64,000 bases of DNA from Pristiophorus japonicus. Taxonomy: Eukaryota. The notes beneath the pieces are model-generated. The model had not been told where the DNA came from. It did no database searches and saw nothing but the letters and a program-made list of their open reading frames with translations. Of the stretch, positions 8,145-58,875 are shown piece by piece. The stretch covers positions 86,800,001 to 86,864,000 of the forward strand of contig NC_091997.1 in NCBI RefSeq assembly GCF_044704955.1, read 5' to 3'. Positions within the stretch are counted from its first letter, which is position 1, and each line of letters starts with the position of its first letter. Made by a program: the position numbers and the translations under genes.

Positions 8145-8430
8145 CGTCCGTCTCTGCTCCTGCCTCAGCTCATCCACTGCTGAAGCCCTCATCCATACCT
8201 TTGTTACCTCTAGATTTAACTATTCCAATGCACTCCTGGCTGGCCTCCCACATTCTACCCTATGTAAACTTGAGGGCATCCAAAGCAGCCCGTGTCCTAA
8301 CTCGCACCAAGTCCCGCTCACCCATCACCCCTGTGTTCATTGACCTACATCGGCTCCCGGTAAAGCAACGCCTCGATTTCAAAATTCTCCTCTTTGTTTT
8401 CAAATCCCTCCATGGCCTCGCCCCTCCCAA
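8145..8430 (+). mobile_element. L2 LINE ORF2 fragment
   Basis: AEALIHTFVTSR.NYSNALLAG..ARVLTRTKSRSPITPV..LH.LPVKQR.DFK. Confidence 0.8.
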
Positions 8431-8436
8431 TCCGAC

Positions 8437-8911
8437 AGGCGGGATGTATAATGAGCGGGGTGTATAATAGGCAGGTGTATAACGGCGGGTGTATAACGGG
8501 TGGGTGTATAACGGTGGGGTGTATAATGGGTGGGGTGTATAACTGGTGGATGTATAACGGGCGGGGTGTATAACGACGGGGTGTATAATGGGCAGTTGTG
8601 TATAACATGCGGGTGTATAACGGGCGGGTGTATAATGGGCGGGGTGTATAACGGTCAGGTTGTATAACAGGCGGGGTGTATAATGGGTGGTGTGAATAAA
8701 GGCAGGGTGTATAATGGGCGGGGTGTATAACGGGCAGGGTGTATAACAGGCGGGGTGTATAATGGGTGGTGTGAATAAAGGGGGGGTGTATAATGGACGG
8801 GGTGTATAACGGGCAGGGTGTATAACAGGCGGGGTGTATAACATAACGGGCGGGGTGTATAACATAACGGGCGGGGTGTATAAGGGCGGGGTGTATAAGG
8901 GCGGGTGTATC
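8437..8911. repeat. Minisatellite, ~16 bp unit GGGCGGGGTGTATAAC
   Basis: Direct tandem array. Confidence 0.95.
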
Positions 8912-9153
8912 TACTATCGGCAGGTTGCACCGAAGTTGAAAATTACGCCCAGATAAAATATTTCTTTCTTTGCAGAACTCTAAGAAAATCAGCGCACGCT
9001 GATATCCATGACTTGGGGTAGTAGGTCTGGGATATCTGACTCTGACTGCTTTACATAGAAACATAGAAACATAGAAAATAGGTGCAGGAGTAGGCCATTC
9101 GGCCCTTCTAGCCTGCACCGCCATTCAATGAGTTCATGGCTGAACATGCAACT

Positions 9154-12060: not shown

Positions 12061-12137
12061 CTCCTTTCTGTCTTTTGCTTTTGCCTCCTTTTTGTTTCCC
12101 TCTGTCTCCCTGCATTGGTTCCCATCCCCCTGCCATA

Positions 12138-12520
12138 TTAGTTTAAATCCTCCCCAACAGCACTAGCAAACACTCCCCCTAGGACATTGGTTCCGGTCCT
12201 GCCCAGGTGCAGACCGTCCGCTTTGTACTGGTCCCACCTCCCCCAGAACCGGTTCCAATGCCCCAGGAATTTGAATCCCTCCCTGCTGCACCACTGCTCA
12301 AGCCACGTATTCATCTGCGCTATCCTGCGATTCCTACTCTGACTATCACGAGGCACTGGTAGCAATCCCGAGATTACTACTTTTGAGGTCCTACTTTTTA
12401 ATTTAGCTCCTAGCTCCTTAAATTCTTTTCGTAGGACCTCATCCCTTTTTTTAACTATGTCGTTGGTACCAATATGCACCACGACAACTGGCTGTTCTCC
12501 CTCCCTTTTTAGAATGTCCT
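12138..12520 (-). pseudogene. CR1 ORF1 C-terminal SGNH/GDSL esterase-like domain, truncated
   Basis: VVHIGTND and DGLHL motifs. Confidence 0.85.
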
Positions 12521-12720
12521 CCATTGACACTCACCACTTGGCCCAAAAACTGCACTGCTCATTGGATTAATGTACATTTCTCTCAGTCACAGAGGAGTTC
12601 TTATCATATGGGCCTCCGGGACCAGGCGTTGGAAGCTTTGAATCATTGAGAGGAATGGGAGAACAATCCAATGTGTTCCATGTATGAACTGCAGCGCTCA
12701 AACAGCATTGTCTCCCCCTC

Positions 12721-13132
12721 CCCCGTTACATCTTGTTACACCTTGTTACACCCCGTTACACCCCGTTACACCCCGTTACTCATTGTTACACCCCGTTACA
12801 CCTTGTTACACCTTGTTACACCCTGTTATATCCTGTTACACCCCGTTACACCTTGTTACACCCCGTTACATCTTGTTACACCCTGTTACACCCCGTTACA
12901 CCTTGTTACACCCTGTTACACTTTATTACACCCTGTTACAACCCGTTACACCTTGTTACATCCTGTTACACCCCGTTACACCCTGTTACATCCTGTTACA
13001 CCCTGCTACAACCCGTTACACATTGTTACACCCTGTTACACCCCGTTACACACCGTTACATCTTGTTACACCTTGTTACACCCCGTTACACCTTGTTACA
13101 CCCCGTTACACTCTGATATACCCCGTTACACC
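12721..13132. repeat. Minisatellite, 10 bp unit CC(C/T)(C/T)GTTACA
   Basis: Direct tandem array. Confidence 0.95.
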
Positions 13133-13164
13133 CTTCTGAAAAACAAGTTTTCCAATGAGTCACA

Positions 13165-13613
13165 TGACATTGCTCTTTCCCCACAGCCCTGTTATTTTTT
13201 CCTTCTGACGCACATATCCAATTCCCTTTTGAAAGTCACCATTGAATCTGTGCAATCCATAACACACCTCGCTGTGTAAAACGAATTTCCTCATCTCCCC
13301 CCTGGTTCTTGTGCCAATGATCTTAAACCTGTGCCCTCTGGTTACTGACCAGGGAAACAATTTCTCACTATTTATGTCGCAAAACCCTTCATGATTTTGA
13401 ACGCCTCAATTAAATCTCCCCTTAACCTTCTCTGCACTAAGGAGAACAAGCCCAGCTTCTCCAGTCTCTCTACAGAACTGAAGTCTCTCAACCCCGGCGC
13501 CATTCTGGTCAACCTCCTCTGCCCCCTCTCCAAGGCCTTCACATCCTTCCTAAAATGCGGTGCCCAGAATTGGACGCAATACTCCAGCTGCGGCCGAATC
13601 AGTGATTTATAAC
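13165..13613 (-). mobile_element. CR1 LINE 3' fragment
   Basis: YKSLIRPQLEYCVQFWAP..LGLFSL..RRLRGDLIE. Confidence 0.85.
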
Positions 13614-26989: not shown

Positions 26990-27339
26990 CTGAATCACAG
27001 AGCAATTTATTTTGAATCTGCATTAAAGTATGGTTTATTGTTACAATAAAGGAGCTGCCAGGAAGAGGGGGGATTTTATCGTGTCCAATCTTCAAGTTGT
27101 TAGATTATCTTCACAGCTCAGAAATCATGGTATTCAAATTCATCCTTATAATAACTGTCATTAAAATAATGAAATCAATCTGAAAGGTATGACAGTAAAA
27201 TCTTGTCATGAAAATTTACAGCTTGTGATCAGCCTGTCAATCACTGTTGATAACTTGGTGCGGGGCGCAGGCTCCAATCACAGGCCGTCCCTTCGAGTCA
27301 CAGCTCTCTGAGACAATGTCCAACAAACCAGGCCTCAGC

Positions 27340-28737
27340 CTGGGGCCTGGTACTGAAGCAGGGGAGGCCTGGTACGGGAGCAGGAGGGGGCCGGGTACTG
27401 GAGCAGGGGGGCCTGGTATTGGAGCAGAAGGGGCCTGGTACGGGAGCAGGGGGAGCCTGGTACTGGTGCAGGAGGGGGCCTGGTATTGGAGCAGGGGGGG
27501 GGTCTGGTACTGGAGCAGGGGGGGCCTGGTACCGGAGCAGGGGGAGCCTGGTATTGGAGCAGGGGAGGGGTCTGGTATTGGAGCAGGGGGGGCCTGGTAT
27601 TGGAACAGGGGGGGCCTGGTATTGGAGCAGGGGGGGCCCGTACGGGAGCAGGGGGAGCCTGGTATTGGAGCAGGGGAGGGGTCTGGTACCGGAGCAGGGG
27701 GGGCCTGGTATTGGAGCAGGGGGGGCCTGGTACGGGAGCAGGGGGAGCCTGGTATTGGAGCAGGGGGGGCCTGGTACTGGAGCAGGGGGGGCCTGGTATT
27801 GGAGCAGGGGGGGCCTGGTATTGGAGCAGGGGGGGCCCATACGGGAGCATGGGGAGCCTGGTATTGGAGCAGGGGATGGGTCTGGTACGGGAGTAGGGAG
27901 GGCCTGGTATTGGAGCAGGGGGGACCTGGTACGGGAACAGGGGAAGCCTGGTATTGGAGCGGGGGGGCCTGGTACTGGAACAGGGGGGGGCTGGTATTGG
28001 AGCAGGGGGGGCCTGGTATTGGAGCAGGGGAGGGGTCTGGTACTGGAGCAGGGGGTGGGGGCTGGTACTGGAGCAGGGGGAGGGCTGGTACTGGAGCAGG
28101 GGGGGCCTGGTATTGGAGCAGTGGGGGCCTGGTACGGGAGCAGGGGGAGCCTGGTATTGGAGCAGGGGGGGGCCGGTACGGGAGCAGGGGGAGCCTGGTA
28201 TTGGAGCAGGGGGGGCTCGTACGGGAGCAGGGGGAGCCTGGTATTGGAGCAGGGGAGGGGTCTGGTACGGGAGCAGGGGGGGCCTGGTATTGGAGCAGGG
28301 GGGGCCTGGTACGGGAGCAGGGGGAGCCTGGTATTGGAGCAGTGGGTGCCTGGTACTGGAGCAGGGGGGGCCTGGTATTGGAGCAGGGGGGGCCTGGTAT
28401 TGGAGCAGGGGAGGGGTCTGGTACTGGAGCAGGGGGGGGGCTGGTACTGGAGCAGGGGGGGGGGCTGGTACTGGAGCAGGGGGGGCCTGGTATTGGAGCA
28501 GGGGGGGCCTGGTACGGGAGCAGGGGGAGCCTGGTATTGGAGCAGGGGAGGGGTCTGGTACTGGAGCGGGGGGTGGGGGGGGGGGCTGGTACTGGAGCAG
28601 GGGAGTGGGGGGGCTGGTACTGGAGCAGGGGAGGGGGGGTGGCGGGCTGGTACTGGAGCAGTGGGAGCCTGGTATTGGAGCAGGGGAGGGGTCTGGTACT
28701 GGAGCAGGGGGGGTGCGGGCTGGTACTGGAGCAGGGG
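27340..28737. repeat. G-rich minisatellite, ~22 bp unit GGGGCCTGGTA(T/C)TGGAGCAGG
   Basis: Direct tandem array that is stop-free in several frames. Confidence 0.95.
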
Positions 28738-28952
28738 GAAAGAGGAAGAGGTACGGAGGGTGTGGTTGGGGAAAACGAGAGGGGAGGAAAGGGGGGCAAA
28801 GAGGGCATGAGGATAACAGGCATCACAGCAAACTCCCAAAGTCCCTCCCCACAAATCAACAGCAGGCCCTCACAAGGCTATTTGCTTCGGGTTTTGTTTT
28901 GGTCAGTCTCTGCAGCTTTCATCCCACACCGATGCAGGGTGTGTAAAAACTA

Positions 28953-29545
28953 TCCGGTCGCCTGTCACTTTAATTCCCCGCTCCACTCCCACTCTGACCT
29001 CTATGTCCTTGGCCTCCTACACTGTTCCAATGAAGCTCAACGCAAGCTCGAGGAACAGCACCTCATCTTTCGATTGGTCACTTTACAGCTTTCTGGACTC
29101 AACATCGAGTTCAACAATTTCAGACCAGAACCTCTGCCCATATACTTTTTATACCCTTTCCTCTTTGCTTTACAACCTCCCTTGTTTCCTCTTTCCCAGA
29201 GCAGCTGGTGATCATTCCACCATTCACACTCTATCTAGACTCATCTTTTGTTTCTTAACTTGTCCCATTACCATCTCATTTCGGCCCATCATCCCTTTTG
29301 TCTCTCTAATCTCTCCTGCTTTCCATCCTATCACCGACCTTCCCTTTTGTTCTTTCCTCCCCTCCCCTTTTCCTTGCCCCTGCGCTTGCTTAAGAATTTG
29401 TTACATCGCAAACATTCGCCAGTTCTGACGAAGGGTCACAGAGGCGAAACGTTAACTTTCTCTCCACAGATGCTGCCATTGAGATTTCCAGCATTTTCTG
29501 TTTTTATTTCAGATTCCAGCATCCACAGTATTTTGCTTTAGTGTT
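28953..29545 (+). mobile_element. Penelope-like element 3' end
   Basis: PVACHFN..HS.SDL.VLGL..RKLEEQHLIFRL.TL...GLN is a GIY-YIG C-terminus; pyrimidine-rich UTR; 14-bp TSD GTGTGTAAAAACTA (28939-28952 and 29546-29559). Confidence 0.85.
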
Positions 29546-31599: not shown

Positions 31600-32385
31600 C
31601 TGTGTCAGTTTGATTCTCTCGCCTCTGCATCAGAATGCTGTGACTTCAAGACCCACTCCAGAGACTTGAGCACTCAATCCAGGCTGACACTCCAGTGTTG
31701 TCCTGAGGAGCGCTGCACTGTCAGAGAGGCAGTACTGGGAGAGTGCTGTACTGTCGGAGGGGCAGTACTGAGGGAGCGCCGCACTGTCAGAGAGGCAGTA
31801 CTGAGGGAGCGCTGTACTGTCGGAGGGGCAGTACTGAGGGAGCGCCGCACTGTCGGGGGGACAGTACTGAGAGAGCACTGGCTGCACTGTCGGAGGGCAG
31901 TACTGAGGGAGCGCTGCACTGTCGGAGGGGCAGTACTGAGAGAGCACAGGCTGCACTGTCGGAGGGGCAGTACTGAGGGAGCGCTGCACTGTCGGAGGGC
32001 AGTACTGAGGGAGCGCTGCACTGTCACAGGAGCAGTACTGAGAAAGTGCTGCACTGTCGAAGGTGCCATCTTTCAGATGAGACGTTAAACCTAGGCCACG
32101 TCTGCTCTCTCAGCCAGATGTAAAAGATCCCATGGCACTATTTCAAAGAATTGCAGGGGACTTATCCCCGGTGTCCTGGGCCAATATTTATTCCTCAATC
32201 AACATAACAAAAACAGTTTATCTGGTTATTATCACATTGCTGTCTGTGGGAGCTTGCTGTGTGCAAATTGGCTGCCGCGTTTGCTATATTACAGTCCTGA
32301 CTACACTCCAAAATGTACTTCATTGGCTTTAAAGCTGTGGGCTGTGCGGTGTCCGTGAAAGGCGCTATATAAAGTGTTTCTTTTT
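31600..32385 (+). mobile_element. DeuSINE-like SINE with an internal ~34-bp tandem expansion (31700-32060)
   Basis: Head, body and tail match 591-1055; expanded unit GCAGTACTGAGGGAGCGCTGCACTGTCGGAGGG. Confidence 0.85.
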
Positions 32386-33397: not shown

Positions 33398-34315
33398 AAC
33401 ATAGAACCATAGAAACATAGAAAGTAGGTGCAGGAGTAGGCCATTCGGCCCTTCGAGCCTGCACCACCATTCGATAAGACCATGGCTGATCATACAACTT
33501 CAGTACCCCCTTCCTGCTTTCTCTCCATACCCCTTAATGCCTTTGGCCATAAGGGCCATATCTAACTCCCTTTTGAATATATCTAACGAACTGGTCTCAA
33601 CAACTTTCTGTGTTAGAGAATTCCACAGGTTCGCAATTATCTGAGTGAAGAGGTTTCTCCTCATCTCAGTCCTAAATGGCTTACCCCTTATCCTTAGACT
33701 GTGACCCCTGGTTCTGGACTTCCCCAACATCGGGAACATTCTTCCTGCATCTAACCTGTCCAATACCGTCAGAATTTTATATGTTTCTATGAGATCCCCT
33801 CTCATTTTTCTAAATTCCAGTGAATATAAGCCTAGTCGATCCAGTCTTTCTTCATATGTCAGTCCTGCCATCCCGGGAATCAGTCTGGTGAACCTTCGCT
33901 GCACTCCCTCAATAGCAAGATTGTCCTTCCTCAGATTAAGAGACCAAAACTGGACACAATACTCAAGGTGTGGCCTCACCAAGGCCCTGTACAACTGCAG
34001 TAAGACCTCCCTGCTCCTACACTGAAATCCTCTCGCTATGAAGGCCAACATGCCATTTGTCTTCTTCACCGCCTGCAGTACCTGCATGCCAACTTTCAAT
34101 GACTGATGTACATGACACCCAGGTCTCATTGCACCTCCCCTTTTCCTAATCTGTCACCATTCAGATAATAATCTGCCTTCCTGTTTTTGCCACCAAAGTG
34201 GATAACCTCACATTTATCCACAAATTTACTGCATCTGCCATGCACTTGCCCACTCACCTAACTTGTCTAAGTCACCCTGCAGCCTCTTAGCTAACACTGC
34301 CACCCAGCTTCGTGT
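33398..34315 (-). mobile_element. CR1 LINE 3' portion
   Basis: ORF 33500-34129 is a CR1 ORF2 C-terminus followed by the tail. Confidence 0.9.
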
Positions 34316-34748: not shown

Positions 34749-34952
34749 TGTTAAGAGGCAGGGTAAAAAGAAAAAAGGACTTGCATTTATATAGCGCCTT
34801 TCATGACCCCAGACGTCTCTAGCACTTTACAGCCAATGAAGTACTTTTGGAGTGCAGTCACTGTTGTAATGTGGGAAACACAGCAGCCAATTCGCGCACA
34901 GCAAGCTCCCACAAACAGCAATGTGATAATGACCAGATAATCTGTTTTTGTT

Positions 34953-37900
34953 AGAAAGGAGATGAGGAAAAGTGGAGGGCAGAGAAACCCAAGGCAAAGA
35001 ACAAAAAGGGCCACTGTACAGCAAAATTCTAAAAGGACAAAGGGTGTTAAAAAAACAAGCCTGAAGGCTTTGTGTCTTAATGCAAGGAGTATCCGCAATA
35101 AGGTGGATGAATTAATTGTGCAAATAGATGTTAACAAATATGATGTGATTGGGATTACGGAGACGTGGCTCCAGGATGATCAGGGCTGGGAACTCAACAT
35201 CCAGGGGTATTCAACATTCAGAAAGGATAGAATAAAAGGAAAAGGAGGTGGGGTAGCATTATTGGTTAAAGAGGAGATTAATGCAATAGTTAGGAAAGAC
35301 ATTAGCTTGGATGATGTGGAATCTATATGGGTGGAGCTGCAGAACACTAAAGGGCAAAAATCGTTAGTGGGAGTTGTGTACAGACCTCCAAACAGTAGTA
35401 GTGATGTTGGGGAGGGCATCAAACAGGAAATTAGGAGTGCATGCAATAAAGGTGCAGCAGTTATAATGGGTGACTTTAATATGCACATAGATTGGGCTAG
35501 CCAAACTGGAAGCAATACGGTGGAGGAGGATTTCCTGGAATGCATAAGGGATGGTTTTCTAGACCAATATGTCGAGGAACCAACTAGGGGGGAGGCCATC
35601 TTAGACTGGGTGTTGTGTAATGAGAGAGGATTAATTAGCAATCTCATTGTGCGAGGCCCCTTGGGGAAGAGTGACCATAATATGGTGGAATTCTGCATTA
35701 GGATGGAGAATGAAACAGTTAATTCAGAGACCATGGTCCAGAACTTAAAGAAGGGTAACTTTGAAGGTATGAGGCATGAATTGGCTAAGATAGATTGGCT
35801 AATGATACTTAAGGGGTTGACTGTGGATGGGCAATGGCAGACATTTAGAGAACGCATGGATGAATTACAACAATTGTACATTCCTGTCTGGCGTAAAAAT
35901 AAAAAAGGGAAGGTGGCTCAACCGTGGCTATCTAGGGAAATCAGGGATAGTATTAAAGCCAAGGAAGTGGCATACAAATTGGCCAGAAATAGCAGCGAAC
36001 CTGAGGACTGGGAGAAATTTAGAACTCAGCAGAGGAGGACAAAGGGTTTGATTAGGGCAGGGAAAATGGAGTACGAGAAGAAGCTTGCAGGGAACATTAA
36101 GGCGGATTGCAAAAGTTTCTATAGGTATGTAAAGAGAAAGAGGTTAGTAAAAACAAACGTAGGTCCCCTGCAGTCAGAATCAGGGGAAGTCATAACGGGG
36201 AACAAAGAAATGGCAGACCAATTGAACAAGTACTTTGGTTCAGTATTCACTAAGGAGGACACAAACAACCTTCCGGATATAAAAGTGGTCAGAGGGTCTA
36301 TTAAAGAGGAGGAACTGAGGGAAATCTTTATTAGTCGGGAAATTGTGTTGGGGAAATTGATGGGATTGAAGGCCGATAAATCCCCAGGGCCTGATGGACT
36401 GCATCCCAGAGTACTTAAGGAGGTGGCCTTGGAAATAGCGGATGCATTGACAGTCATTTTCCAACATTCCATTGACTCTGGATCAGTTCCTATCGAGTGG
36501 AGGGTAGCCAATGTAACCCCACTTTTTAAAAAAGGAGGGAGAGAGAAAGCAGGGAATTATAGACCGGTCAGCCTAACCTCAGTAGTGGGTAAAATGATGG
36601 AATCAATTATTAAGGATGTCATAGCAGCGCATTTGGAAAATGGTGACATGATAGGTCCAAGTCAGCATGGATTTGTAAAAGGGAGATCATGCTTGACAAA
36701 TCTTCTGGAATTTTTTGAGGATGTTTCCAATAAAGTGGACAAAGGAGTACCAGTTGATGTGGTATATTTGGACTTTCAGAAGGCTTTCGACAAGGTCCCA
36801 CACAGGAGATTAATGTGCAAAGTTAAAGCACATGGGATTGGGGGTAGTGTGCTGACGTGGATTGAGAACTGGTTGTCAGACAGGAAGCAAAGAGTAGGAG
36901 TAAATGGGTACTTTTCGGAATGGCAGGCAGTGACTAGTGGGGTACCGCAGGGTTCTGTGCTGGGGCCCCAGCTGTTTACATTATACATTAATGATTTAGA
37001 CGAAGGGATTAAATGTAGTATCTCCAAATTTGCGGATGACACTAAGTTGGGTGGCAGTGTGAGCTGCGAGGAGGATGCTATGAGGCTACAGAGTGACTTG
37101 GATAGGTTAGGTGAGTGGGCAAATGCGTGGCAGATGAAGTATAATGTGGATAAATGTGAGGTTATCCACTTTGGTGGTAAAAACAGAGAGACAGACTATT
37201 ATCTGAATGGTGACAGATTAGGAAAAGGGAAGGTGCAACGAGACCTGGGTGTCATGGTACATCAGTCATTGAAGGTTGGCATGCAGGTACAGCAGGCGGT
37301 TAAGAAAGCAAATGGCATGTTGGCCTTCATAGCGAGGGGATTTGAGTACAGGGGCAGGGAGGTGTTGCTACAGTTGTACAGGGCCTTGGTGAGGCCACAC
37401 CTGGAGTATTGTGTACAGTTTTGGTCTCCTAACTTGAGGAAGGACATACTTGCTGTTGAGGGAGTGCAGCGAAGATTCACCAGACTGATTCCCGGGATGG
37501 TGGGACTGACCTATCAAGAAAGACTGAATCAACTGGGCTTGTATTCACTGGAGTTCAGAAGAGTGAGAGGGGACCTCATAGAAACGTTTAAAATTCTGAC
37601 GGGTTTGGACAGGTTGGATGCAGGAAGAATGTTCCCAATGTTGGGGAAGTCCAGAACCAGGGGTCACAGTCTAAGGATAAGGGGTAAGCCTTTTAGGACC
37701 GAGATAAGGAGAAACTTCTTCACCCAGAGAGTGGTGAACCTGTGGAATTCTCTACCACAGGAAGTAGTTGAGGCCAATTCACTAAATATATTCAAAAGGG
37801 AGTTAGATGAAGTCCTTAGTACTCGGGGGATCAAGGGGTATGGCGTGAAAGCAGGAAGTGGGTACTGAAGTTTCATGTTCAGCCATGAACTCGTTGAATG

Positions 37901-37968: not shown

Positions 37969-38230
37969 ATTTTGTGATAAATATTGGCCCCAGAACACCA
38001 GGGATAACTCCCCTGCTCTTCTTTGAAATAGTGCCATGGGATCTTTTACGTCCACCTGAGAAGGCAGACGGTGCCTCGGTTTAACGTCTCATCCAAAAGA
38101 CGGCACCTCCGACAGTGCAGCACTCCCTCAGCACTACACTGGAGGGTCAGCCTAGATTTTTGTGCTCAAGCTCCTGGAGTGGGACTTGAACCCACAACCT
38201 TCTGACTCAGAGGTGAGAGTGCTGCCCACT

Positions 38231-40395
38231 TTAAAAAAAAATGTAATCTATTCAACATTAAAAACATTTACAACATTGTGATCATTCCTTTGTATCACAC
38301 AAATCCTGTCCACCCCTCTGTACAGCGTTCCTCCAACACACAAACATCAAAAGCTGAAGTTTAATTTGTCTCCCGTAACATATATTAATCTATTGTACTT
38401 TAAAAAGTGATCATAACCAAACCTTCCGAACTCTTTCTAGGATATCCTCATCCCAAAAGGTTTCTTGCAGACACAACAGGTCTGTACCTTTAAAACACTT
38501 TAACAACTGCTGCAATTTCCTCTCCCCCCTCAGTCCGTTCACATTAATCGAGACCAATCATGGCTCCTAATAAAGGAGGTGTGCCTGATAATCCCCACCA
38601 TTATTCAATCTCGGACCTTCCCTCCTCTCAGGCTCCTTCCCAACTTCCTGGGCAGCTCTTGTTTTCTCCTGCAGCCTCTGGCTCTTTTTCACCTCCTGTT
38701 TGAATCTTCCCCGCGGTTTCAGCCTCTTCCTTACATTAGTTTAGGATGAGGAGCTGTCTCTTCTCCCTTCTTCTGCCCCTCACTAACCTTTCCCCTTCCA
38801 CATGATGCCTCCCCCCACCCCCATCCACCACTTCCATGTCTCCATCCCCCTCCTCACTCTCAAGCTCCTCTGTAATCTCCCTTCCCTGTTCCCTGTCAGA
38901 TACAGAATCTCCCTTAGAGAGTCCTCCTGCGATCACAGTTTCTCCAACAGTGCCACTCCCTTCGGCCTCAACTCCACCACTGACCCTTGCTCCCCGTTTC
39001 TTCTCTCTCTGGGACAATGGCGCGTCTCCACCCATCTTGCTCCCTTTTGGTGTCTTTGTCTCCCCGCTCTCGTCCTGCTGCCCCTTTAAGGCTCCTGCCT
39101 CTTGCCCCCTCTCCTTGTCTTGCCCCCTTCCTGCTCCCCAACATGTACAATTCCACGTCTCTCTTTGGAGTACTTATACTTACCCCGTTCCCGCCTCTGC
39201 TCCCCCCACGGACTCCTGATTCTTTCGGGAGAGCCGAGCCATACTATGGCCCGACTCTGCCCTTGACCCGTGCTGCCCCCCGTTGACGTTGTCCTTTTCC
39301 ACCATACTTGGTGTGTTTTCCACCATCGCCATCCTGTTCTCTGCGCCGCGATTTTCTGCCTCTTCTTGTGCTCTTTCCTCATTCCGTTCGGCGGCCGTGC
39401 CCTCCGCCTGCTCCGTTCCTCCGGCCACTCCACCCACACCTCCTGCTCCTTCTCCCATCTCCTCGTCACTCAAGGAGCTTCCTTCTGCCTCACACTCACA
39501 GTGGGTGGGGTCTTTGTGACACACCCCACAGCTCTCTGCCTTGCAGTTCCGAGCGATGTGTCCAGACTCGCCGCAATTATAACAGTACAGGTCTGGACAG
39601 CTTCTTACAAGATGGTCGTGACCAAGACAATAATAGCAAACTGTCACTTGGTTATCATGCAGTACCCAGGAGCACTGCACACCTTCCATTGGCTCGAATT
39701 TCATGCGGTAGGGTAATGACTTCACCCGCTCTTGGAACTGCACCTTTAAATAACAGGTTCCATCTTCTACCCACGTTCCAGGATAATATCTCCTCTTTAT
39801 TGCTGAGCAAATTTTAATGTCCCACAACTCCAGCTTTTTTGTTAGCACATCGTCCTCAATATAAACTGTTGGGTTTAAGAATGAGACCCCCACCCCCGCC
39901 ACCTTCAGAATACAGCATAGATACATCTAAGAACTTCTCACCGGCCTTCAAACTCAGTAAAAGTCTTTCCACCTCCTCTCTGCCACTGACCGTCACTTCG
40001 AACCCAACATTTGGTCAGTAGGCAAAGCAACTTCCCTCACCACGGTCCTCATGTACTGCCTCCCGGATAATATCCCAAGCTTGCATCTCCTTATCCTGGC
40101 AGTGAACCACCACCACGTTTTCTTTTCCAAACCTCCTGGGGTCCCGGCCCAAATCTTTGGGCCTTTGATTCTCCCTTCCTCCAAATATTTTCTCCCCTGA
40201 TTAAATTCATCCGGCGAACATTGTCCTCTGAGAGGCCTGGCACTCCAGGCCCTTCAGCAGCCACTGGCTGAACTTAATGGCCCAAAAAGGTCCTAAAACC
40301 TGAAAAAAAAAACAATCCAAAAACCACTTTTGACGAACTCACTTCTTTAATCAAATAACCAGCAGTACCTGCTCACTCCTATCCCTGCCCACCGA
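38231..40395 (-). mobile_element. Non-autonomous Tx1/L1-clade element: ORF1 plus internally deleted ORF2
   Basis: 16-bp TSD GAGAGTGCTGCCCACT; ORF1 with VSFLN..IED..IKRRYYPGT..DGT..SLPY and CCHC knuckles; ORF2 reduced to SINVNG..DLLCLQET plus a short C-terminus. Confidence 0.85.
38600..40184 (-). pseudogene. Tx1-type ORF1 (zinc-knuckle nucleic-acid chaperone), frameshifted
   Basis: CYYCLGHDHLVRSC, CYNCGESGHIARNC and CGVCHKDPTHCEC, then an acidic/basic low-complexity tail. Confidence 0.8.
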
Positions 40396-41086
40396 GAGAG
40401 TGCTGCCCACTGAGCTACGGCTGACACTAAATGGGATGAGAAATGAAGGGTGTGACACTTTTACCCAGGGGTTGAGCTGAACCAGCTCTTACCCATGTCA
40501 CAAATGACTATGTGACTATGAGCATGGTAAATTGTCCCCCCTCGTCCTTCTGGACCTGTCTGCAGCCTTTGATGTAGTTGACCTCTCCATCCTCCTCCAA
40601 CGCCTCTCCTCTGTCATCCAACTGGGTGGGACTGCACTCGCCTGGTTCCATTCTTGCCTATCCAGTTATAGCCAGAAAATCACCTGCAACGGCTTCTCTT
40701 CCCACATTGTTATCTCTGGTGTCCCCCAAGGATCTATCCTTGGCCCCCTTCCTAATTCCCATCTACAAGCTGCCCCTTGGAAACATTATTGGAAAACTCA
40801 ATGCCAGTTTCCACGTGTACATTGACGACACCCAGCTCTACCTCACCACCACTTCTCTTGACCCGCCACCATCTCTAAATTGTCAGACTGCTTGTCTCAC
40901 ATCCAGTGCTGGATGAGCAGAAATTTCCTCCAACTAAATATTGGGAAGGCCGAAGCCATTGTCTTCAGTCCCCGTCACAAACTGCGTTCACTAGCCACCG
41001 ACTCCATCCCTCTCCCTAACTTTTGTCTGAGGCTGAACCACACCGTTCACAACCAAGGTGTTCCATTTGACACCGATTACCCCAAC

Positions 41087-41398
41087 TGATAGAGAATTCA
41101 AACAGGCTGCATTTAGACAGGCTGTGAAAATTCACAGACAACAAGTCAGAGATGCTACGTGAGTGGTAGCATGTTGCATTAAGCCATCAATCAACTTGAC
41201 ATTTTCGGACCTTGGGTAGTGAGCCAATAAGGTCAAAGAAGGCGAGTTCTTTTCTGTAAATTGATCCATTTTGACCATGCGGTCTCAGTAAGACAAAGGA
41301 ACTGGCAATCAGCCAGCAGATTGTTGCTCTCTGCCAAGATTAAAAAGTTAAAACTACAATCGGAGTTCGTATTTCATTGGAAATTAAGAGATCTAACA
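41087..41398 (+). repeat. ERV 5' LTR (312 bp)
   Basis: Differs from the 3' LTR by 2 substitutions and a 16-bp deletion. Confidence 0.95.
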
Positions 41399-41657: not shown

Positions 41658-43237
41658 ATGGCCCGAGACCCCAGTAAAGAAATGGCAGCAGGAGATAAGA
41701 GCAAAGAATTGCCTACAACAGTTAAAGGCGGGCGAGTACCACTTGAAGTTTCGCTAGCTTTAATTCTCGAACAGTTGAAAGAATACATAGAGCAACAATT
41801 CAACTTATCTAAAACCTGTATTAAGATCGAACAAAAGTACGGAACCTCCAAAGGACAATGGTCCTTGGACGAGATTAAAAAGGTCTGGGGATAAAGGACC
41901 CGTATGAAAAATAAAGAGTGAACTAGATGGTCCCTAGCAGTTATGGGCCAGATTCGAAAGCGGAATGAAATTATAATGCATTCCCAACATGATCGAGAAC
42001 TGACCAGTACAAAGGATCAATTGCAAGCAGTTTGCGACAGAAAAAGCTTGAACTTGAAAAGCTGGAAGTGGAAGTTAAAGATCTTAAAGGTGAAATTAAA
42101 GAATGGAAAAAATCATTAGGTCAAGAGACAGTAATAGGAAAAGGAAAATGTATTGATCAATTCCCAGGGTACCCATGTTTGGATAAATTAAAAGCGCAAA
42201 CCCGAAGACACGACTGAGGAATAAATACGTATTCTGAATCCTCCGACAATACAGTGTCGGAGGATGATGAAGAATTAGGGGTGCGCTTTGCCCCGTTTAA
42301 AAAAAGACGAGTTGTAGTCAAATCAGAAGAGACTGCGGATGAGGGCGGAACCAAAAAAACGAAGAAAAGGCTGTATGATAAATACTTAATTCATGCTCCG
42401 GCAGACCCAGAGAAAATTGATAAATGGTCCAAGGAATTGCCCAATCCAAAGAAAGGGGGAGTAAAAACGTGGGACCAATTGCACCGTTTAAGAAATATAT
42501 ATCAACTTCATCCCTGGGACGGAGTGCAAATTTTGACCATAATGGTGCCAAAAACACAGGGAAGAAAATTGCACGACAAGGTAGATGAAGCTTTGGGGCA
42601 GAATGAGCAAGAATTAGATGCAGGATGGGAGGTGATTAAACACTGGCTGCAAGCCTTCAGTCCAGCTAAGACAGATTGGGGAAAAATTGCAGCCTGCCAA
42701 CAGAAAGGAACAGAGGAGGTCCTGGAGTATGACGAGCGGTTTAGATGCACGTGGCTAGAACATTCGGGTATGAATAATACGGATGAGGAAATGGATGAAC
42801 AAGTGTTTGGACCCCTGAAAGCAGCTTTCGTGGCAGGTCTAAAGCCAGAACTGTCCAAAATGCTTAAGGTAGTGTTACCGGACTGGGAAGGTAGAGGAAC
42901 TACCTTTGCAGCATTGGTGGATCGATGTAACCAATTAGATCGGGATATGGGAGCTAAAGTCCGAGCTGTACAGGCTATGGGATGGAAATCCCAGGATTCC
43001 GATAAACAGTCATTAGGAAAATTACCCGGAAAATGTCATTATTGTGGGAAAGAAGGTCACTGGGCCAAGACGTGCAGGGCAAAACAGCAAGGTCATGGCT
43101 GGGGAAGAGAACGCAGCCAGGGATACAATTCAGCCAACAAGCCAGGCTTGTCACAAGATAATGACCTCATAGAAGCATTTAAGCGACTGACAATACAACA
43201 ACAGAAGGAGTTACTTGGGATAGCAAAAAACGATTAG
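41658..43237 (+). pseudogene. gag: ERV gag (5' part disrupted; 42254-43237 open)
   Basis: Capsid MHR-like CQQKGTEEVLEYDERF and the CCHC knuckle CHYCGKEGHWAKTC. Confidence 0.85.
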
Positions 43238-43305
43238 AGCCCATCCTGGCTCCCCTCCTCGCACTAATACAACAAAGGGGAGATGGGCTATATATAACTG
43301 TGAGG
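43225..43305 (+). promoter_or_regulatory. -1 ribosomal frameshift signal at the gag-pro junction
   Basis: In-frame A AAA AAC, 6-nt spacer and a bulged 14-bp stem; the -1 frame is open into LLDTGA. Confidence 0.8.
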
Positions 43306-46300
43306 GTGGGCGATAAGGATGTGGACTGTCTTTTAGACACAGGGGCGGAATTAACATGCTTACCCCTACAACATGGAGACTTTTTGCCGTTGGATGGTAG
43401 GGCACGTACAGCCTATGGAGTCGGGGGCCATAAAATGGAAATTAAAAGGACAATACCGGTACTTATAGGGCTGGGTCCACATGAACTAACCACACCGGTC
43501 TGGATAGGCCCAGTAGATCAACCCCTTTTGGGAATGGACGTTCTAATCCAAATAGATTCATCGTTGCATTTCGAGGATGACATGGTCAATTAGAACTTTG
43601 AAGAAAGAAGAATTGAAGGAACACCCGATATGGGCTAAAGATAAGAACGATTGTGGCCTACTCCAGATGGAGCCTGCGTCATTTACAGGGACCAAGCCTC
43701 CATGCACTAAACAGTATCCCATCAGTCCAACTGCCATCGCAGGAATCTTACCGGTTATTCAGCAATTGGAGAAACAAGGGATGCTTATTAAAACGCATAG
43801 CTCCTCCAATAGCCCCGTGTGGCCGGTACAGAAATCTAATGAGACTTGGCGTTTGACTGTCGATTATAGGAAAGCTAACCAGTGTATTGATCAAAAAGCT
43901 CCTTTGGTCGCAGATCCCTCCACCATTTTTAATGCCCTCAAACCGGAACATAAATATTTCTCGGTTATAGATATGGCCAACGGATTTTGGTCGGTGCCTC
44001 TGACACCGGAGGTTCGACAGTGGTTTGCTTTCACTGTCCAAGGACAACAGTATACTTGGACCCGGTTACCACAGCGTTTCCACAACAGCCCTACGGTATT
44101 CCACATGGCTTTACAAAGCCATTTGCGAGAATTACCTCCCCTGTCATCCACAGTCATCCAATATGTAGACGATATCCTGCTAGCTTCAAACACGGAAGAA
44201 CAGCATGAACATGATTTACGAGCTTTGCTGGATCACTTTCAGCTGAAAGGACATAAAGCCAGCATCGACAAAGCACAAATATCCCAAGAAGAGGTTGTAT
44301 ACCTGGGACAAAAGATTTCACAAGGAAAGAGAGAACTTACCCAGGATAGAACTGCAGCCATTCGGGCTGCTAAAAAACCCACCACTATTCAGGAACTAAG
44401 GTCTTTTTTGGGATTGTGTAACTTTAACAGAAATTGGATTGACTCCTTCACACAGCTTGCTCAGCCACTGAATGATATTTTAAAGGGGAAACGTGCCTCT
44501 AAAGAAGCCATCACCCTCACTAAGGAACAGCAAGAGGCCTTCCTGAGTTTGAAAAAGGCTTTGTGTTCAGCACCGGCTCTGGGAATCCCCGACAGTGGTA
44601 AGCCATTTACCCTGTTTGTCCATGAGAAAGAAGGATATATGACAGCTATACTGACACAAGAACATGGGGATCGGCAAAGACCTATTGGCTATTATTCGGC
44701 AAAACTGGATGCGGTAGCCCTCGGATAGGGAAGTTGCCCAAGGGCCATGGAAGCTACATGTCGAGCGGTAATGATCACTGCGGGTCTAGTCCTCGACCAA
44801 AAGCTGATTGTCAAGTGTCCCCGCACCGTACATGCTTTGCTGTCTATGAATAGAATGTCTCAGGTGACGGCAGCAAGATGGACCCGCTGGACAGCAGTTT
44901 TGGAAGCTCCTAATCTCCATATCGTCCGGGCCAGCCCGGTTAATCCCGCAACTATGCTCCCAATGTCAGAATCGAGGGAGCAAGAGGGGGGAGAATGTGT
45001 AAAACATGACTGCGTGGAGATTTTAAAAGAAACAGAAGAAGCAGCCTTAGCAGCAGAGGAGCCTCTGCACAACCCAGATCTCATCCTGTTTACAGATGGT
45101 TCCTCCTTTGTTGACAATGGTACCAGAAAAGCAGGATGGGCAGTTAGAACCTTATATGAGGTAGTGGCAAAAGGATGTTTACCCTCAGGAACATCAGCAC
45201 AACAGGCCGAGTTACGGGCCCTGTCAGAAGCATGTCGAATAGCAGAAGGACAGACAGCTAATGTTTACACAGATTCGCGTTATGCTTTTGGAGTCGCTCA
45301 CGACTTTGGTATGTTATGGCGGAAAAGAGGATTCCTCACTGCTGCTGGTACACCTATCCGAAATGGAAAAGAAGTCAGAGACTTACTGGAGGCCATACAA
45401 TTACCTCAGGAAGTGTCCATCCTGAAGTGTAAGGCCCATACCAAGGAAAATACCACAGAAGCACAGGGAAATGCCCTAGCCGACCAGGCAGCTAAAGATG
45501 CCGCCTCACAGGGCGTTCCTCCAGAAGAACCAACACAGATGTGCAGATTGAAAGCACTCAGGACTCTGACACGAGACCTTCAAACAATGCAAGGCGAGTG
45601 CTCCCGAGAGGAAAAATGGACATGGATTGAGGCAGGAATTAAGCTATGTGAAGATCGTGTCTGGAGACAAAGAGTTACCGACAAGCCAGTCGCGCCACAA
45701 GCGCTTATGCCTTTTTTAGCCCAACAGATCCACTCGTGAGGACACTTGACCTCACAACAGATGACAGCATGGTTCCAGAAAAGCTGGTGGGGTCGGGGAT
45801 TTAAAAAACATGCCCAGCTGGTAGCAGACCGCTGTGTGGTCTGCCAGAAAAATAATTCTGGACCCATCACGGTAATGCCCCAACTGAGGCCCCCTGCCCC
45901 TGTCGGACCATTCCAGCATCTGCAGGTTGATTATATATCTCTTCCTTCATGCCAAGGATACACTAACATTCTTGTCATGGTCGATAGATTCTCTAGATGG
46001 GTAGAAGCTGTCCCAACTAAAAGAGCCACAGCCAATCACACTGCAAAGGTCTTGTGTAAGGATTACATTCCCCGATGGGGAGTCCCGAGTAGCATTGACT
46101 CAGATCAGGGAACACACTTCACAGGTGCTGTCTGCTAAGAAGTCTGTAGGTTACTGAACATTACGTGGGATTTACACTGTCCTTATCATCCACAATCATC
46201 AGGACAAGTAGAGCGAATGAATCGAACTTTGAAACAACGGCTTGCCAAATATCACCAAGAAGGAACACCATGGCCCCAGGCACTACCAATAGTGCTATGC

Positions 46301-50886: not shown

Positions 50887-53120
50887 ATGGCTAACTTTGG
50901 TACGTTGCAGCAGTTCGCCGATGGTGATGATTGGGAAGCCTTTGTGGAGAGTTTCGACCATTTCTTCACAGCAAACGACCTGGCAGGTGACACTCCGGCC
51001 ACACTGGCTGATAAGTGCAGAGCTATCCTGCTGTCCAGCTGAGGGCCCACCGTCTATGGTCTCGTCAGGGACTTTCTGGCACCAACGAAGACAACGACCA
51101 AGACGTACGAGGAGCTTGTAACACTGATCCAAGAACAACTCAAGCCCAAAGAGAGCATCCTCACAGCCAGACACCAGTTTTATACACACCGACGGCCTGA
51201 AGACCAGGAGATCGCGAAATATGCTGCAGATCCCAGGAGGCTGGCGGCACTGTGTGATTTCAGCGATCACCTCACCGAAGCACTGCGGGATATCTTTGTC
51301 ATCGGAATCAGCCATGAGGGTCTTCTTCAAAAGCTACTGTCGGCGGATACCACAGTCACACTGCAGATGGCCACCTCCGTGAGCCAAGCATTCATGACCT
51401 CGACCTGCAGCTCTAGGCTGATGACTCATCCTCAGGACTCAAACCCGGCAAGTACTGTGCACAGAATGGCGCCTTTTAGAGGCTGGACTGTAGAACGGGA
51501 ATCTTCTCAGGGGAGAGAGAACAGGCCCCTGAGTCCCTTAACTGAGGGGGGCTAGTCAAGTAGCTCCATACTGGCGTTGTGGAGGGAATCACAGGGCTCA
51601 CCAGTGCCGTTTTAAAGACTATGTGTGTAAAGGCTGCAGCACAAAGGATCACCTCCAGCGAATGTGTAAAAGAAATATGGCTCACTGTGTTGATGAAGAG
51701 TCTGCAGATGGCCATGAATCCAGTGTGGATTATGAAGCGATAGTCAGAGATGCAGCTCAGCCCTACGATGAGGTATATGGCATGTTTACCTGCACCACCG
51801 AATGTTCTCCATTGAGGATGGAAGTCGAGATAAATGGCGTTCTAGTCTTCATAGAAGTGGACACGGGGGCGAGCCAGTCAGTAATGAATCAAGAAGCCTT
51901 TGAGAGGCTATGGGACAATCAGGCTGAATGGCCCAAGTTTGTCCCGGTTCAGGCAAAGCTGCACACCTACACCAATGAACTTATCCCAGTCATTGGTAGT
52001 GCAGATGTAAAGGTACTCCATGATGGTGCGGTGCACTAGTTACCCCTGTGGATTGTTGCAGGTGATGGACCAACGCTACTTTATTGTACATTAATGATTT
52101 AGACGAGGGGATTAAATGTAGTATCTCCAAATTTGCGGATGACACTAAGTTGGGTGGCAGTGTGAGCTGCGAGGAGGATGCTATGAGGCTGCAGAGTGAC
52201 TTGGATAGGTTAGGTGAGTGGGCAAATGCGTGGCAGGTGAAGTATAATGTGGATAAATGTGAGGTTATCCACTTTGGTGGTAAAAACAGAGAGACAGACT
52301 ATTATCTGAATGGTGACAGATTAGGAAGGGGGAAGGTACAGCGAGACTTGGGTGTCATGGTACATCAGTCATTGAAGGTTAGCATGCAGGTACAGCAGAC
52401 GGTTAAGAAAGCAAATGGCATGTTGGCCTTCATAGTGAGGGGATTTGAGTACAGGGGCAGGGAGGTGTTGCTACAGTTGTATAGGGCCTTGGTGAGGCCA
52501 CAGCTGGAGTATTGTGTACAGTTTTGGTCTCCTAACTTGAGGAAGGACGTTCTTGCTATTGATGGAGTGCAGCGAAGATTCACCAGACTGATTCCCGGGA
52601 TGGTGGGACTGACCTATCAAGAAAGACTGGATCAACTGGGCTTGTATTCACTGGAGTTCAGAAGAGTGAGAGGGGACCTCATCGAAACGTTTAAAATTCT
52701 GACGGGTTTGGATAGGTTGGATGCAGGAAGAATGTTCCCAATGTTGGGGAAGTCCAGAACCAGGGGTCACAGTCTAAGGATAAGGGGTAAGCCATTTAGG
52801 ACCGAGATGAGGAGAAACTTCTTCACCCAGAGAGTGGTGAACCTGTGGAATTCTCTACCACAGAAAGTAGTTGAGGCCAATTCACTAAATATATTCAAAA
52901 GGGAGTTAGATGAAGTCCTTACTACTCGGGGGATCAAGGGGTATGACGAGAAAGCAGGAAGTGGGTACTGAAGTTTCATGTTCAGCCATGAACTCATTGA
53001 ATGGTGGTGCAGGCTAGAAGGGCTGAATGGCCTGCTCCTGCACCTATTTTCTATGTTTCTATGTTACTCGGAAGAAGGTGGATGGAGAAGATCCATTGGA
53101 GCTGGGAAGAGTTCATCCCT
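50887..53120 (+). pseudogene. gag: Gypsy gag-protease, disrupted by stops and a CR1 insertion
   Basis: DDWEAFVESF..LRDIFVIGI, two zinc knuckles, EVDTGAS, and GPTL|LGRRW across the insertion. Confidence 0.85.
52081..53064 (+). mobile_element. Young CR1 3' kilobase inserted in the Gypsy protease
   Basis: ORF 52084-52971 is nearly identical to the 34962 ORF2 C-terminus; TSD TACT. Confidence 0.95.
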
Positions 53121-55204: not shown

Positions 55205-56916
55205 TATAATCAGGATCTGGCTCCAGGCTTTGCCCAGGATCCAGGTCCATGTTTTACCTTGGATCCAGTTCCATATCTTTCCTGGGATCTGGATCCAGAT
55301 TCCCACCAGGAAACAGTTCCATGCTTGGTCCAAATCTGGCTCACAGTTTGGCCCAGGATACAGCGCCACATTTTTCCCACAATCCAGCTCCATGTTATGC
55401 TCACAATCCAGCTCCATATTTTTCCCAGGATCCAGCTCCATGTTTTGCACTGATTCCAGCTCCAGGTTATGTCCAAGATTCAGCTCCATATTTTTCCCAT
55501 AATCCAGCTCTAGATTTTTCCAGGATCCAACTCCTGCTTTGCCCAGGATCTAGATCCAAGTTTTGCCGAGGATCCGGCTTCTTATTTATACTCAGGATCG
55601 GGCTACAGTTTTTGCCCAGGAACCAGCTCAATGTTTGGCCCAGGATATCGCTCCATGTTTTTCCCAGGATCCGGTGCCATATTCTGCACTGAATCTGGCT
55701 CCAGGACCACTCTCAAGGATTTGTCCAGGGTCCGGCTCCAGGGTTTTACAACATTTGATTATATATTTTGCCCAGCATCCGGCTATAGTTTTTGGCAAGG
55801 ATCCAGCTCCATGTTTCACCCAGGAGCCGGTTCCATGTTCTTCCCATGATCCGACTCCAGCTTTTACCCTGCAACCGGTTCCATGTTTGGTCCAAATCCG
55901 GCTCAATGTTTGGCCCAGTATACAGCGCCAAGTTTTTCCCAGGGTCCGGCTCCATGTTTTGTCCAAGATCTGGCTTCATGTTTTGCCCAGGATCCGACTA
56001 CAATTTATGGCCATGATCCAGCTCCGTGTTTTACCTAGGACCTAGTTTCCATATTTTTTCCAGATCCAGATCCAGGTTCGCTCCCCCCCACCGCCCCCCC
56101 ACCAACGCCCCAGAAAGATCCAACTCCATGTCTTGCCCAAATCCAGCTCCAGGTTTGACCCAGGCCCCGGCTCCAGGTTTTACCCAGAATTCAGCACTGA
56201 ATCCGGCTCCAGATTTTGGCCGGGATCAGGCTCAATGTCTGGCTCGGGATCGTGCTCGAGGTTTAGCCCAGGATACAGCTCCATGTTTTTCCAAAGAACT
56301 GGTTCCATTATTTGCCCAGGATTTAGCTTCAGGCTTTGCCCAGAAGCTGATTCTAGATTTTGCCCAGATCCAGCTCCAGGTTTTGCCCAGGATCCAGCTC
56401 CAGATATTGGCCAGATCCAGCTCCAGGTTTGGCCCAGGATCCAGCTCCAGGTTTTGCCCAGATCCAGCTCCAGGTTTTGCCCAGGATCCAGTTCCAGGTT
56501 ATGCCCAGGATCCACTTCCAGATATTGCCCAGATCCAGCTCCAGGTTTTGCCCAGGATCTAGCTCCAGGTTTTGTCCAGGATCCAGCTCCAGAAATTGCC
56601 CAGATCCAGCTCCAGGTTTTGCCCAGGATCCAGCTCCAGGTTATGCCCAGGATCCAGTTCCAGGTTATGCCCAGGATCCACTTCCAGATATTGCCTAGAT
56701 CCAGCTCCAGATTTTGCCCAGGGTCCAGCTCCAGGTTTTGCCCAGGATCCAGCTCCAGGTTATGCCCAGGATCCATTCCAGGTTATGCCCAGGATCCACT
56801 TCCAGATATTGCCTAGATCCAGTTCCAGATTTTGCCCAGGATCCAGCTCCAGGTTTTGCCCAGGATCCAGCTCCGGTTATACCCAGGATCCCGCTCTAGG
56901 TTTTGCCCAGATCCAA
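55205..56916. repeat. Minisatellite, 23-24 bp unit CCCA(G)GATCCAGCTCCAGGTTTTG
   Basis: Tandem array, degenerate on the left and homogeneous from about 56355. Confidence 0.95.
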
Positions 56917-57905
56917 ATCCTGACGGAGGAGCCAACACTGCTGTCCAATCCCATCCCTCCCTGGCTCAGGCCTCAGGTTAAAATTCATGACATCACGGAC
57001 TCGATCTGCATATTTAAACAGGACTCCTTTCGTTCCTGTAGGGTCACAGTGGGAAGAAAGCGGGTCGAAGGGCAGCTGACGTCTGTTACTTTAACTGCTT
57101 CACACACCCCTTGCCACTTGGTTTCCATCAGATGGGGACAGTTAAAATCAGGCCAAGGTGTCCGAAGGTGTGTGCTGCAGATTGCTCTTCATCATCTTCC
57201 TCCTCTTCATCATCATCAAAAGAACATAAGAATTAGGAGCGGGAGTTGGCCATTTGGCCCCTCGAGCCTGCTCCGCCATTCAATGAGATCATGGCTGATC
57301 TTCGACCTCAACTCCACTTTCCCACCCAATCCCCATATCCCTTGATTCTCCTAGTTTCCAAAAATCTATCGATCTCAGCCTTGAATATATGCAATGATTC
57401 AGCGTCTACAGCCCTCAATGCAAATTGATGATGTTTGGCATTCAGTCCCTTGAACCTGTTTCTCTGGTCTGTAGTGAGGTTGTTCTCGTGTTCGCGAATG
57501 CATTAGAAATCCTGGCCAGAGAACATAGCGGTGATCACACGCGGTGTCGGCACACACAGTGCCAGGAGGGGCCTGCCCACTCAAGCTCAGTGTCGGACTT
57601 GGCGCAAGGGAGTCCGGAGACAGTCCTTGTCTTAGTCCACAGGGGTTTCAGTGGGAATTGTAACTGAATAAGACCCCTCACATGTTACAATCGACCAAGG
57701 CATCCTCCCCCCAGTCTCCTCTCGGGTTGTAAATCAAAGAAGGCTGGAATACAAAGGGGAAAAAGTGATGCTTCAGCTGTACAGAGCCACGGGTCAGACC
57801 CCGTCTGCAGTAACTGTGTTCAATTCTGGGCCCCGCACCTCAGGGAGGATATATTGCCCACGGAGAGAGGAGCAGCCCAGATTCACCAGAATGTTACCGG
57901 GGCTG

Positions 57906-58496: not shown

Positions 58497-58875
58497 GGTG
58501 TTAGTTGTGGTTCAGTGGGCAGCACTCTCGCCTCAGAGTCAGGAGGTTGTGGGTTCAAGCCCCACTCCAGGGGCTTGAGCACATAAACCGAGGCTGACCC
58601 TCCCAGTGCAGTGCTGCGGGAGAGCTGCACTGTCGGAGGTGCCGTCTTTCGGATGAGACGTTAAACCGAGGCCCCGCCTGCTCTCTCAGTTGGATGGAAA
58701 AGATCCCATGGCATTATTTTTTTTAACCAATAAGGGAATTAAGGGTTATAGGGAGTGGGCGGGTAAGTGGATCTGAGTCCACAGCTAGATCAGCCATGAT
58801 CTTATTGAATGGCGGAGCAGGCTCGAGGGGCTAGATGGCCGACTCCTGTTCCTAATTCTTATGTTCTTATTATGT
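58497..58875 (+). mobile_element. Chimeric retrocopy: DeuSINE 5' half joined to a CR1 3' tail
   Basis: TSD TCACCT on both sides; junction in a T-run near 58717. Confidence 0.75.

Follow-up and report, generated by a model that had tools for sequence, protein, structure and literature searches.

The analysed window, a 64,000-bp stretch of eukaryotic DNA rich in LINEs and SINEs, carries on its minus strand an old, decayed copy of an L1-group LINE, which keeps ORF1 and both ends and has lost about 3.6 kb of ORF2. This decayed insert lies inside the tRNA-like head of a SINE, and our analysis confirms that observation. In the fullest reading the insert would represent a non-autonomous family of ORF1-only elements. 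Undeleted partners would copy these elements in trans, with an endonuclease for which the A-box region of tRNA-like heads is probably the preferred site; we hold the case for this reading as a whole to be evenly balanced.

Structure of the Insert and of the Split SINE

The insert occupies 2165 bp between two identical copies of a target site duplication (TSD), a 16-mer match that extends no further on either side, and it has the same orientation as the SINE that it splits. The features of its ends and of the SINE are as follows:

40396..40429, minus strand: tRNA-like SINE head on the 5′ side of the split, with A-box-like motif and the upstream TSD copy, from alignment to empty SINE copies; the 5′ start (40429) is approximate, being taken from loose ends of empty-SINE contigs
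40396..40411, minus strand: 5′ copy of the TSD, 16 bp, GAGAGTGCTGCCCACT, identical to 38215-38230
40385..40395, minus strand: opening 11 nt of the insert, matching the target A-box segment at 10 of 11 positions (random 11-mer comparison)
40211..40395, minus strand: 5′ UTR, ~185 nt, from the sequence; covered by family contigs in run X5 and weakly in run X1
38231..38346, minus strand: 3′ UTR, ending in T9 and AA, with no stable fold (z 0.52)
38215..38230, minus strand: 3′ copy of the TSD, 16 bp, GAGAGTGCTGCCCACT, identical to 40396-40411
37975..38230, minus strand: remaining 3′ portion of the split SINE, with the other part of the tRNA-like head, the B-box-like motif and the body; ~90% identity to empty copies

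Two empty copies of the SINE are present in the window (789-1037, minus strand; 58514-58719, plus strand), with one 16-mer each against two at the split locus; a third copy of the TSD 16-mer is found in the empty SINE at 58514. Removal of the insert together with one TSD copy leaves an ordinary member of this SINE, and 181 of 201 aligned bases of the split copy are identical to the empty copy at 58514. The exact repeat and the empty copies with a single 16-mer bear out the preliminary description, which had proposed a 2165-bp insertion with a perfect 16-bp TSD in a SINE. The same description had put the insertion next to the A-box; the locale is right, but the TSD in fact starts inside the A-box-like motif of the head. 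The TSD and both ends are intact around the short form, which counts in favour of an ORF1-only family. The resemblance of the insert start to its target, also pointed out earlier, holds up: the match of 10 in 11 nt is equalled by 148 of 200000 random 11-mers from the window.

No clear poly(A) tail closes the 3′ end of the element, which terminates in T9 followed by AA. Folding of the 3′ block (z 0.52) and of the 5′ junction (z 0.82) is no better than that of shuffled sequences, and no ribozyme or hairpin is therefore claimed. An Rfam search over the insert returned one chance match and nothing credible.

ORF1

The coding part upstream of the deletion comprises two listed features:

38567..40210, minus strand: decayed ORF1, from homologs and profile matches; ATG and stop were checked, the position of the start codon being putative
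39492..39638, minus strand: three Cys/His knuckles of ORF1 (Pfam and alignment)

The whole of ORF1 and the 5′ UTR are retained. ORF1 is full length yet broken in this copy, with stops at 40017-40015, 39182-39180, 39176-39174 and 38738-38736 and a frame change near 39905-39925; it ends at 38567, five bases ahead of the ORF2 ATG. Its layout consists of an RNA-binding-type N-terminal half, the knuckles, a long acidic low-complexity tail and a basic end. Between 39638 and 39492 lie two knuckles of the form CX2CX4HX4C and one more Cys-rich motif, conserved in an alignment of 24 rows, and ORF1 matches Pfam zf-CCHC with an E-value of 1e-9. These findings, with at least four stops and the frame change, agree with the earlier account of a full-length but decayed ORF1 with three Cys/His knuckles.

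The stretch 39926-39480 yields 1283 protein matches at E ≤0.001, the best 150 of which are 37-51% identical. Thirteen of these 150 align also to 40164-39871 in another frame, so the N-terminal half of ORF1 is present behind the frame change. Among ten clusters of ORF1 homologs, the named ones are CCHC-type, gag-like or hypothetical proteins; fishes occur in five clusters, and one bears a bacterial bin label. The first Atlas match of ORF1 (0.92) is a cluster with RBD_ZCCHC3_2nd and zf-CCHC. An exact look-up of the window ORF1 pieces in the protein collection gave no entry and word-index protein searches gave no match, both of which count as weak evidence.

Remnant of ORF2 and the Deletion Junction

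What is left of ORF2 was delimited by comparison with three distant relatives (L001-L003), described below:

38417..38561, minus strand: ORF2 start and APE stub, ~48 codons (alignment to relatives; nine X5 contigs continue in the APE frame)
38347..38415, minus strand: last 22 ORF2 codons and stop, out of frame with the stub (C-terminus of the L002 ORF2)

The deletion junction is at 38417/38416. In each of the three relatives the ORF2 N-terminus can be aligned with the stub (38557-38417); the score of the stub against L002 was reached by none of 5000 shuffles, and its match to the Pfam APE profile (E 0.0012) is below Pfam's cut-off. The C-terminal piece (38415-38347) best matches residues 1255-1273 of the L002 ORF2 (1277 aa), with a score reached by 108 of 5000 shuffles when the whole L002 ORF2 is used and by 14 of 5000 with its last 40 aa, and with a BLASTP E-value of 0.001. 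On these scores we judge the piece to be genuine, on what is admittedly a short alignment. Measured against L002, the loss amounts to ~1207 codons, or ~3.6 kb. The make-up proposed in the preliminary description, about 50 N-terminal APE codons followed by about 20 C-terminal ones, is close to the ~48 and 22 codons found on the two sides of the junction.

Relatives have five extra bases at 38555 that are absent in this copy, and its ORF2 start is consequently out of frame with the stub. A family-wide, frame-breaking loss of these five bases was considered and rejected, as the extra bases are present in contigs of runs X1, X5 and X14; depth at 38555 is too uneven to rank the forms with and without them.

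Copies of the Element in Public Contigs

Pieces of the insert occur in 22 of the 24 runs listed, from eight studies and with eight organism labels, the best run containing 40% of the insert's words. No RNA run stands among those listed, though X21 may be one. Contigs of runs X1, X5, X14 and X21 (four organism labels) were placed on 38190-40470 at 80% likeness, where those of X1, X5 and X21 reach every one of the 30 bins and those of X14 reach 25. A single alternative letter at a place is common to up to 76 contigs in X1 and 91 in X5, and the longest contig pieces show 6-18% divergence from this copy; there are thus many further copies. For most of the 40 places listed, nearly all family contigs carry another letter than this copy, transitions predominating; the insert at this locus is therefore a decayed copy. 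The quotient of summed depth and single-contig depth (~1000 in X1, ~4000 in X5) was not used as a copy number: summed depth is no such measure, and bins swing more than 20-fold.

The family contigs bear on the target-like 5′ end as well. Depth in X1 is 186 over the outer 5′ UTR against ~12,500 over ORF1, a low value that is not read as absence. This thin coverage, together with the frequency of added 5′ sequence in Tx1-mobilised elements (accessible text of PMC4494074), would suit an 11-nt mimic that arose only once, as a duplication of target DNA in second-strand joining at this locus, and that is no feature of the family. The mimic, however, has a single mismatch to its own target, and 121 X1 contigs of empty SINEs carry a variant with the insert's letter (G) there, which fits capture from another SINE copy. 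We rate the one-off origin only a little below an even chance.

At 38417, nine contigs of X5 diverge from the reference and stay in the APE frame, as L001 does after the same tryptophan. An undeleted partner therefore exists and the break point is fixed; the autonomous partner that the preliminary description had envisaged is thus represented by these X5 copies. Loose ends at 38417 and 38558 are among the six loose-end rows listed for X5 and, as the 38417 row stands among only six, undeleted copies may be abundant or dominant in this run.

Other X5 contigs contain joints of 38410, 38411 and 38413 to 38556, in which the ORF2 start is joined to the C-terminal block in frame with the last ORF2 codons. 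They comprise at least four contigs in three letter variants (one joint with two contigs), at depths of 42-87 against ~30 for single contigs, and their 3′ break point is 3 nt from that of this copy. Because several variant contigs link the ORF2 start to the C-terminal block, the X5 organism carries several diverged copies of a second, shorter ORF1-only form, which may derive from the present form or be independent. The 3′ block of ~185 nt kept in this copy is nearly the same in that second form.

The ratio of summed depth over the 3′ block to that over the ORF1 bins is 0.91 in X1, 1.54 in X5 and 0.55 in X21 (X14, with empty bins, was left out), and the strong 3′ excess expected of mostly 5′-truncated autonomous copies is seen in none of these three runs; the ratio is soft evidence because of the more than 20-fold swings between bins.

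A family of such elements has to be weighed against a one-copy event: at this locus, one member of an abundant autonomous family would have lost 3.6 kb, either through a template jump during insertion or through a deletion afterwards, and its junction would have founded no family. Such a loss would be in keeping with the lack of a contig bridging 38417/38416 among the 32 pieces listed of ~39,580, with the good representation of undeleted copies in X5, with the many private changes in the ORF2 start and ORF1 of this copy, and with the lack of a second copy of the insert within the 64-kb window. It is at odds, however, with the second X5 deletion form, present in several variant contigs and with a 3′ break point 3 nt away, and with the missing 3′ depth excess. 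Two weak signs, both dependent on the choice of rows, point in the same direction: no 38417 loose end stands among the six rows listed for X1, and the X14 depth would be explained by one contig that extends ~20 nt beyond the junction. The single-locus loss appears unlikely to us, and an ORF1-only family is what we consider probable. The non-autonomous ORF1-only family claimed in the preliminary description is accordingly upheld as regards a multi-copy element with a second form of near-identical 3′ block, while no bridging contig among the 32 listed supports the junction itself; that exactly 38417/38416 is common to family copies we regard as just marginally favoured.

Distant Relatives and Possible Target Preference

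Relatives were sought by a pattern scan, which retained two of 71 candidate stretches from metagenomes, one of 14 from genome bins and none of 28 from viral contigs; the host SINE was likewise not found in the viral contigs. L002 is a complete autonomous element, with a 1277-aa APE-RT-zf ORF2 and an ORF1 37% identical to that of the insert. Among solved structures, its ORF2 is closest to human L1 ORF2p (E 5e-71), a structural match that points to the L1 group and to no finer placement. Rfam gave no credible match on L001-L003. L003 and the protein P0012 are animal-type LINE sequences filed in bacterial genome bins, where they are likely host contamination.

The 26 nt in front of L002 (28-53) repeat without mismatch the first bases of a tRNA-Ser gene (L004; pattern search and ARAGORN). 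The distance from AGTGG to the junction is 8-9 nt in L002 and 11 nt in the insert, which puts the L002 junction 2-3 nt from the equivalent position, in the same orientation; the 3′ flank of L002 lies off the contig. A phage BLAST of the tRNA piece gave no identification. The piece could be a captured head instead of a target, by analogy with Tx1-Mar and its U1/U2 heads; L002 is also a candidate tRNA-body-targeting LINE in its own right. By eye, the first bases beyond its junction include 9 nt that are reverse-complementary to a section of the tRNA piece. Neither L001 nor L003 has a tRNA flank at its 5′ end, leaving L002 as the only one of the three relatives with such a flank.

The target SINE, which we take to resemble SacSINE1/DeuSINE, is tRNA-like to a modest degree: the best Rfam hit on an empty copy is a weak match to a tRNA-clan model (E 0.22), the head has weak T-arm matches to phage tRNAs, and ARAGORN makes no tRNA call there. 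Together with the LINEs of the window, this SINE suggests a cartilaginous fish as the source. Heads of this SINE make up ~0.35% of the window and whole copies ~1.8%.

The latter figure leaves room for an ORF1-only family with no sequence preference, one copy of which struck a very abundant SINE by chance. Related SINEs exceed 200,000 copies in a chimaera genome (accessible text of PMC5499810), two of the three relatives are without a tRNA flank, and no flank of another family copy appears among the loose-end rows listed, with 1163 further rows beyond the listing. The heads, however, form only ~0.35% of the window, the 5′ end of the insert copies its target as few random 11-mers do (148/200000), and L002 adjoins tRNA-Ser at nearly the same position and in the same orientation; we think this combination of an ORF1-only family and a chance hit unlikely. 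Targeting of tRNA or SINE heads, as proposed in the preliminary description, gains from the distant relative at almost the same tRNA position and loses from L001 and L003 with no tRNA flank, and we incline towards it with some reserve. That the ORF1-only family and head targeting hold together we judge as open to equal weight on either side.

Neighbouring Elements in the Window

Two nearly identical open APE-RT ORF2 copies, at 34941-37868 (plus strand, 975 codons) and 9154-12162 (minus strand, 1002 codons), represent a young LINE that is presumably CR1-like. Further fragments are located at 33500-34153 and 52066-52971, and the tail repeat of the copy at 34941-37868 adjoins the split SINE near 37975. 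Also adjoining the split SINE is a decayed RT fragment of another LINE (40508-41089, plus strand; Pfam RVT_1, E 5e-6), so there are at least three nested layers. A retrovirus-like or LTR-type element at 42218-45739 (plus strand) contains a CCHC gag-like ORF and RT and RNase H pieces with stops between them. In a copy of the split SINE at 31616-32191, an internal segment of 30-36 bp is partly repeated in tandem, and an ARAGORN call of tRNA-Thr at 4163-4254 (plus strand) is probably the head of a second SINE family. Long tandem-repeat arrays (8260-9124, 12650-13279, 27229-29211 and 56046-57345) give spurious open frames.

Comparison with Known Retroelements

The comparisons below draw on the accessible text of the papers cited. 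The insert is likely of Tx1 type, judging from its knuckle ORF1 and its L1-group relative, the element itself being without RT. It possesses the Tx1-type combination of an RNA-binding and CCHC ORF1 with APE at the ORF2 N-terminus, and ORF1s with RNA-binding and CCHC domains in non-mammalian animals have been linked to Tx1 (PMC5203782).

Non-autonomous LINEs with ORF1 present include HAL1 of the L1 clade, HeT-A of Jockey and Ag-Sponge of CR1, and elements of this type have been proposed to supply ORF1p that joins the machinery of the partner (PMC5786205, PMC5753468). Like them, the insert keeps both ends and ORF1 around an internal deletion of ORF2; no Tx1-derived case is named in the lists given in the accessible text of these two papers. 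HAL1 proper is ruled out by the ORF1, which is of the zinc-knuckle type and not Transposase_22: Pfam zf-CCHC was found, and Transposase_22 in none of the window ORF1 pieces or homologs. Moreover, the accessible text does not describe HAL1 as sequence-specific.

The closest likeness is to TRE5-A.2 of Dictyostelium, a trans-mobilised element with a large ORF2 deletion, a retained ORF1 and a short 3′ cis element; the insert shares the deletion, the ORF1, a short 3′ block and a tRNA-associated target. TRE5-A inserts ~50 bp upstream of tRNA genes via contact of ORF1p with TFIIIB (PMC3159450), whereas the insert is placed within the head and its TSD begins in the A-box, and the TRE5 type is ruled out on this ground.

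Several Tx1 families target other repeats, such as Tx1-Mar in Mariner-N4_AMi, with SINEU passengers, as well as Kibi/Koshi, Keno and Mutsu (PMC4494074), and Dewa of the Tx1 clade targets the spacer of tRNA-Leu arrays (PMC3706591). The insert resembles these target-specific LINEs as an L1-group APE element that landed in another repeat, and their 5′ ends can carry small-RNA-derived sequence, to which its target-like start may be compared. They are, however, autonomous elements or protein-free passengers, and Dewa uses the spacer and not the tRNA body; a SINE head as a Tx1 target was not found in the accessible text of PMC4494074 and PMC3706591. Dada DNA transposons insert in the A box of tRNA genes (PMC3706591), a comparable site, but by a cut-and-paste transposase and thus by an unrelated mechanism. 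More generally, non-LTR elements are reported to target tRNA genes and other transposable elements (PMC8869645).

In the literature covered, neither an ORF1-only family of Tx1 type nor a shark Tx1 that targets SINE heads was found; this scope did not take in Repbase, Dfam or most subscription papers, so the element may already be catalogued. Each of the two habits is known separately, and what is likely new is therefore the combination of an ORF1-only form with landing in a SINE head, not a principle.

Proposed Mechanism and Implications

Target-primed reverse transcription is the established insertion route of LINEs and, with TRE5-A.2, serves as the model for the steps proposed here. A master copy would have lost most of its ORF2. 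Its short RNA, coated by its own ORF1p, would have kept the last ~185 nt as a cis element for the ORF2p of the partner; that ORF2 is borrowed in trans we infer from the anatomy and from precedent. The partner APE would nick one strand inside the A-box and the other strand 16 nt further on, and reverse transcription primed at the nick would lead to insertion in the sense orientation, after which the inserted copy would decay neutrally. The 11-nt target-like 5′ end may be target sequence carried on the RNA or may have been added in second-strand joining.

A bolder scenario, for which we see only a slim chance, is that an A-box-nicking Tx1-type lineage, comparable to L002, moved onto the plentiful SINE heads in this fish lineage and gave rise more than once to ORF1-only parasites, in two or more deletion forms that have a 3′ block in common. 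Selection would have kept the ORF1 of these parasites, maybe tethering the particle to Pol III promoters in the manner of TRE5-A ORF1p.

If confirmed, the element would add the Tx1 type to the L1, Jockey and CR1 clades as a source of ORF1-only LINE parasites. Its family, of probably hundreds to thousands of copies, would offer material for asking why a non-autonomous LINE keeps its ORF1. It would also help to define the minimal 3′ RNA needed for the partner ORF2p, a length that the two deletion forms suggest to be ~185 nt. An APE endonuclease specific for the tRNA A-box and able to use SINE heads as well, if truly present, would add a further target to those of sequence-specific LINEs.
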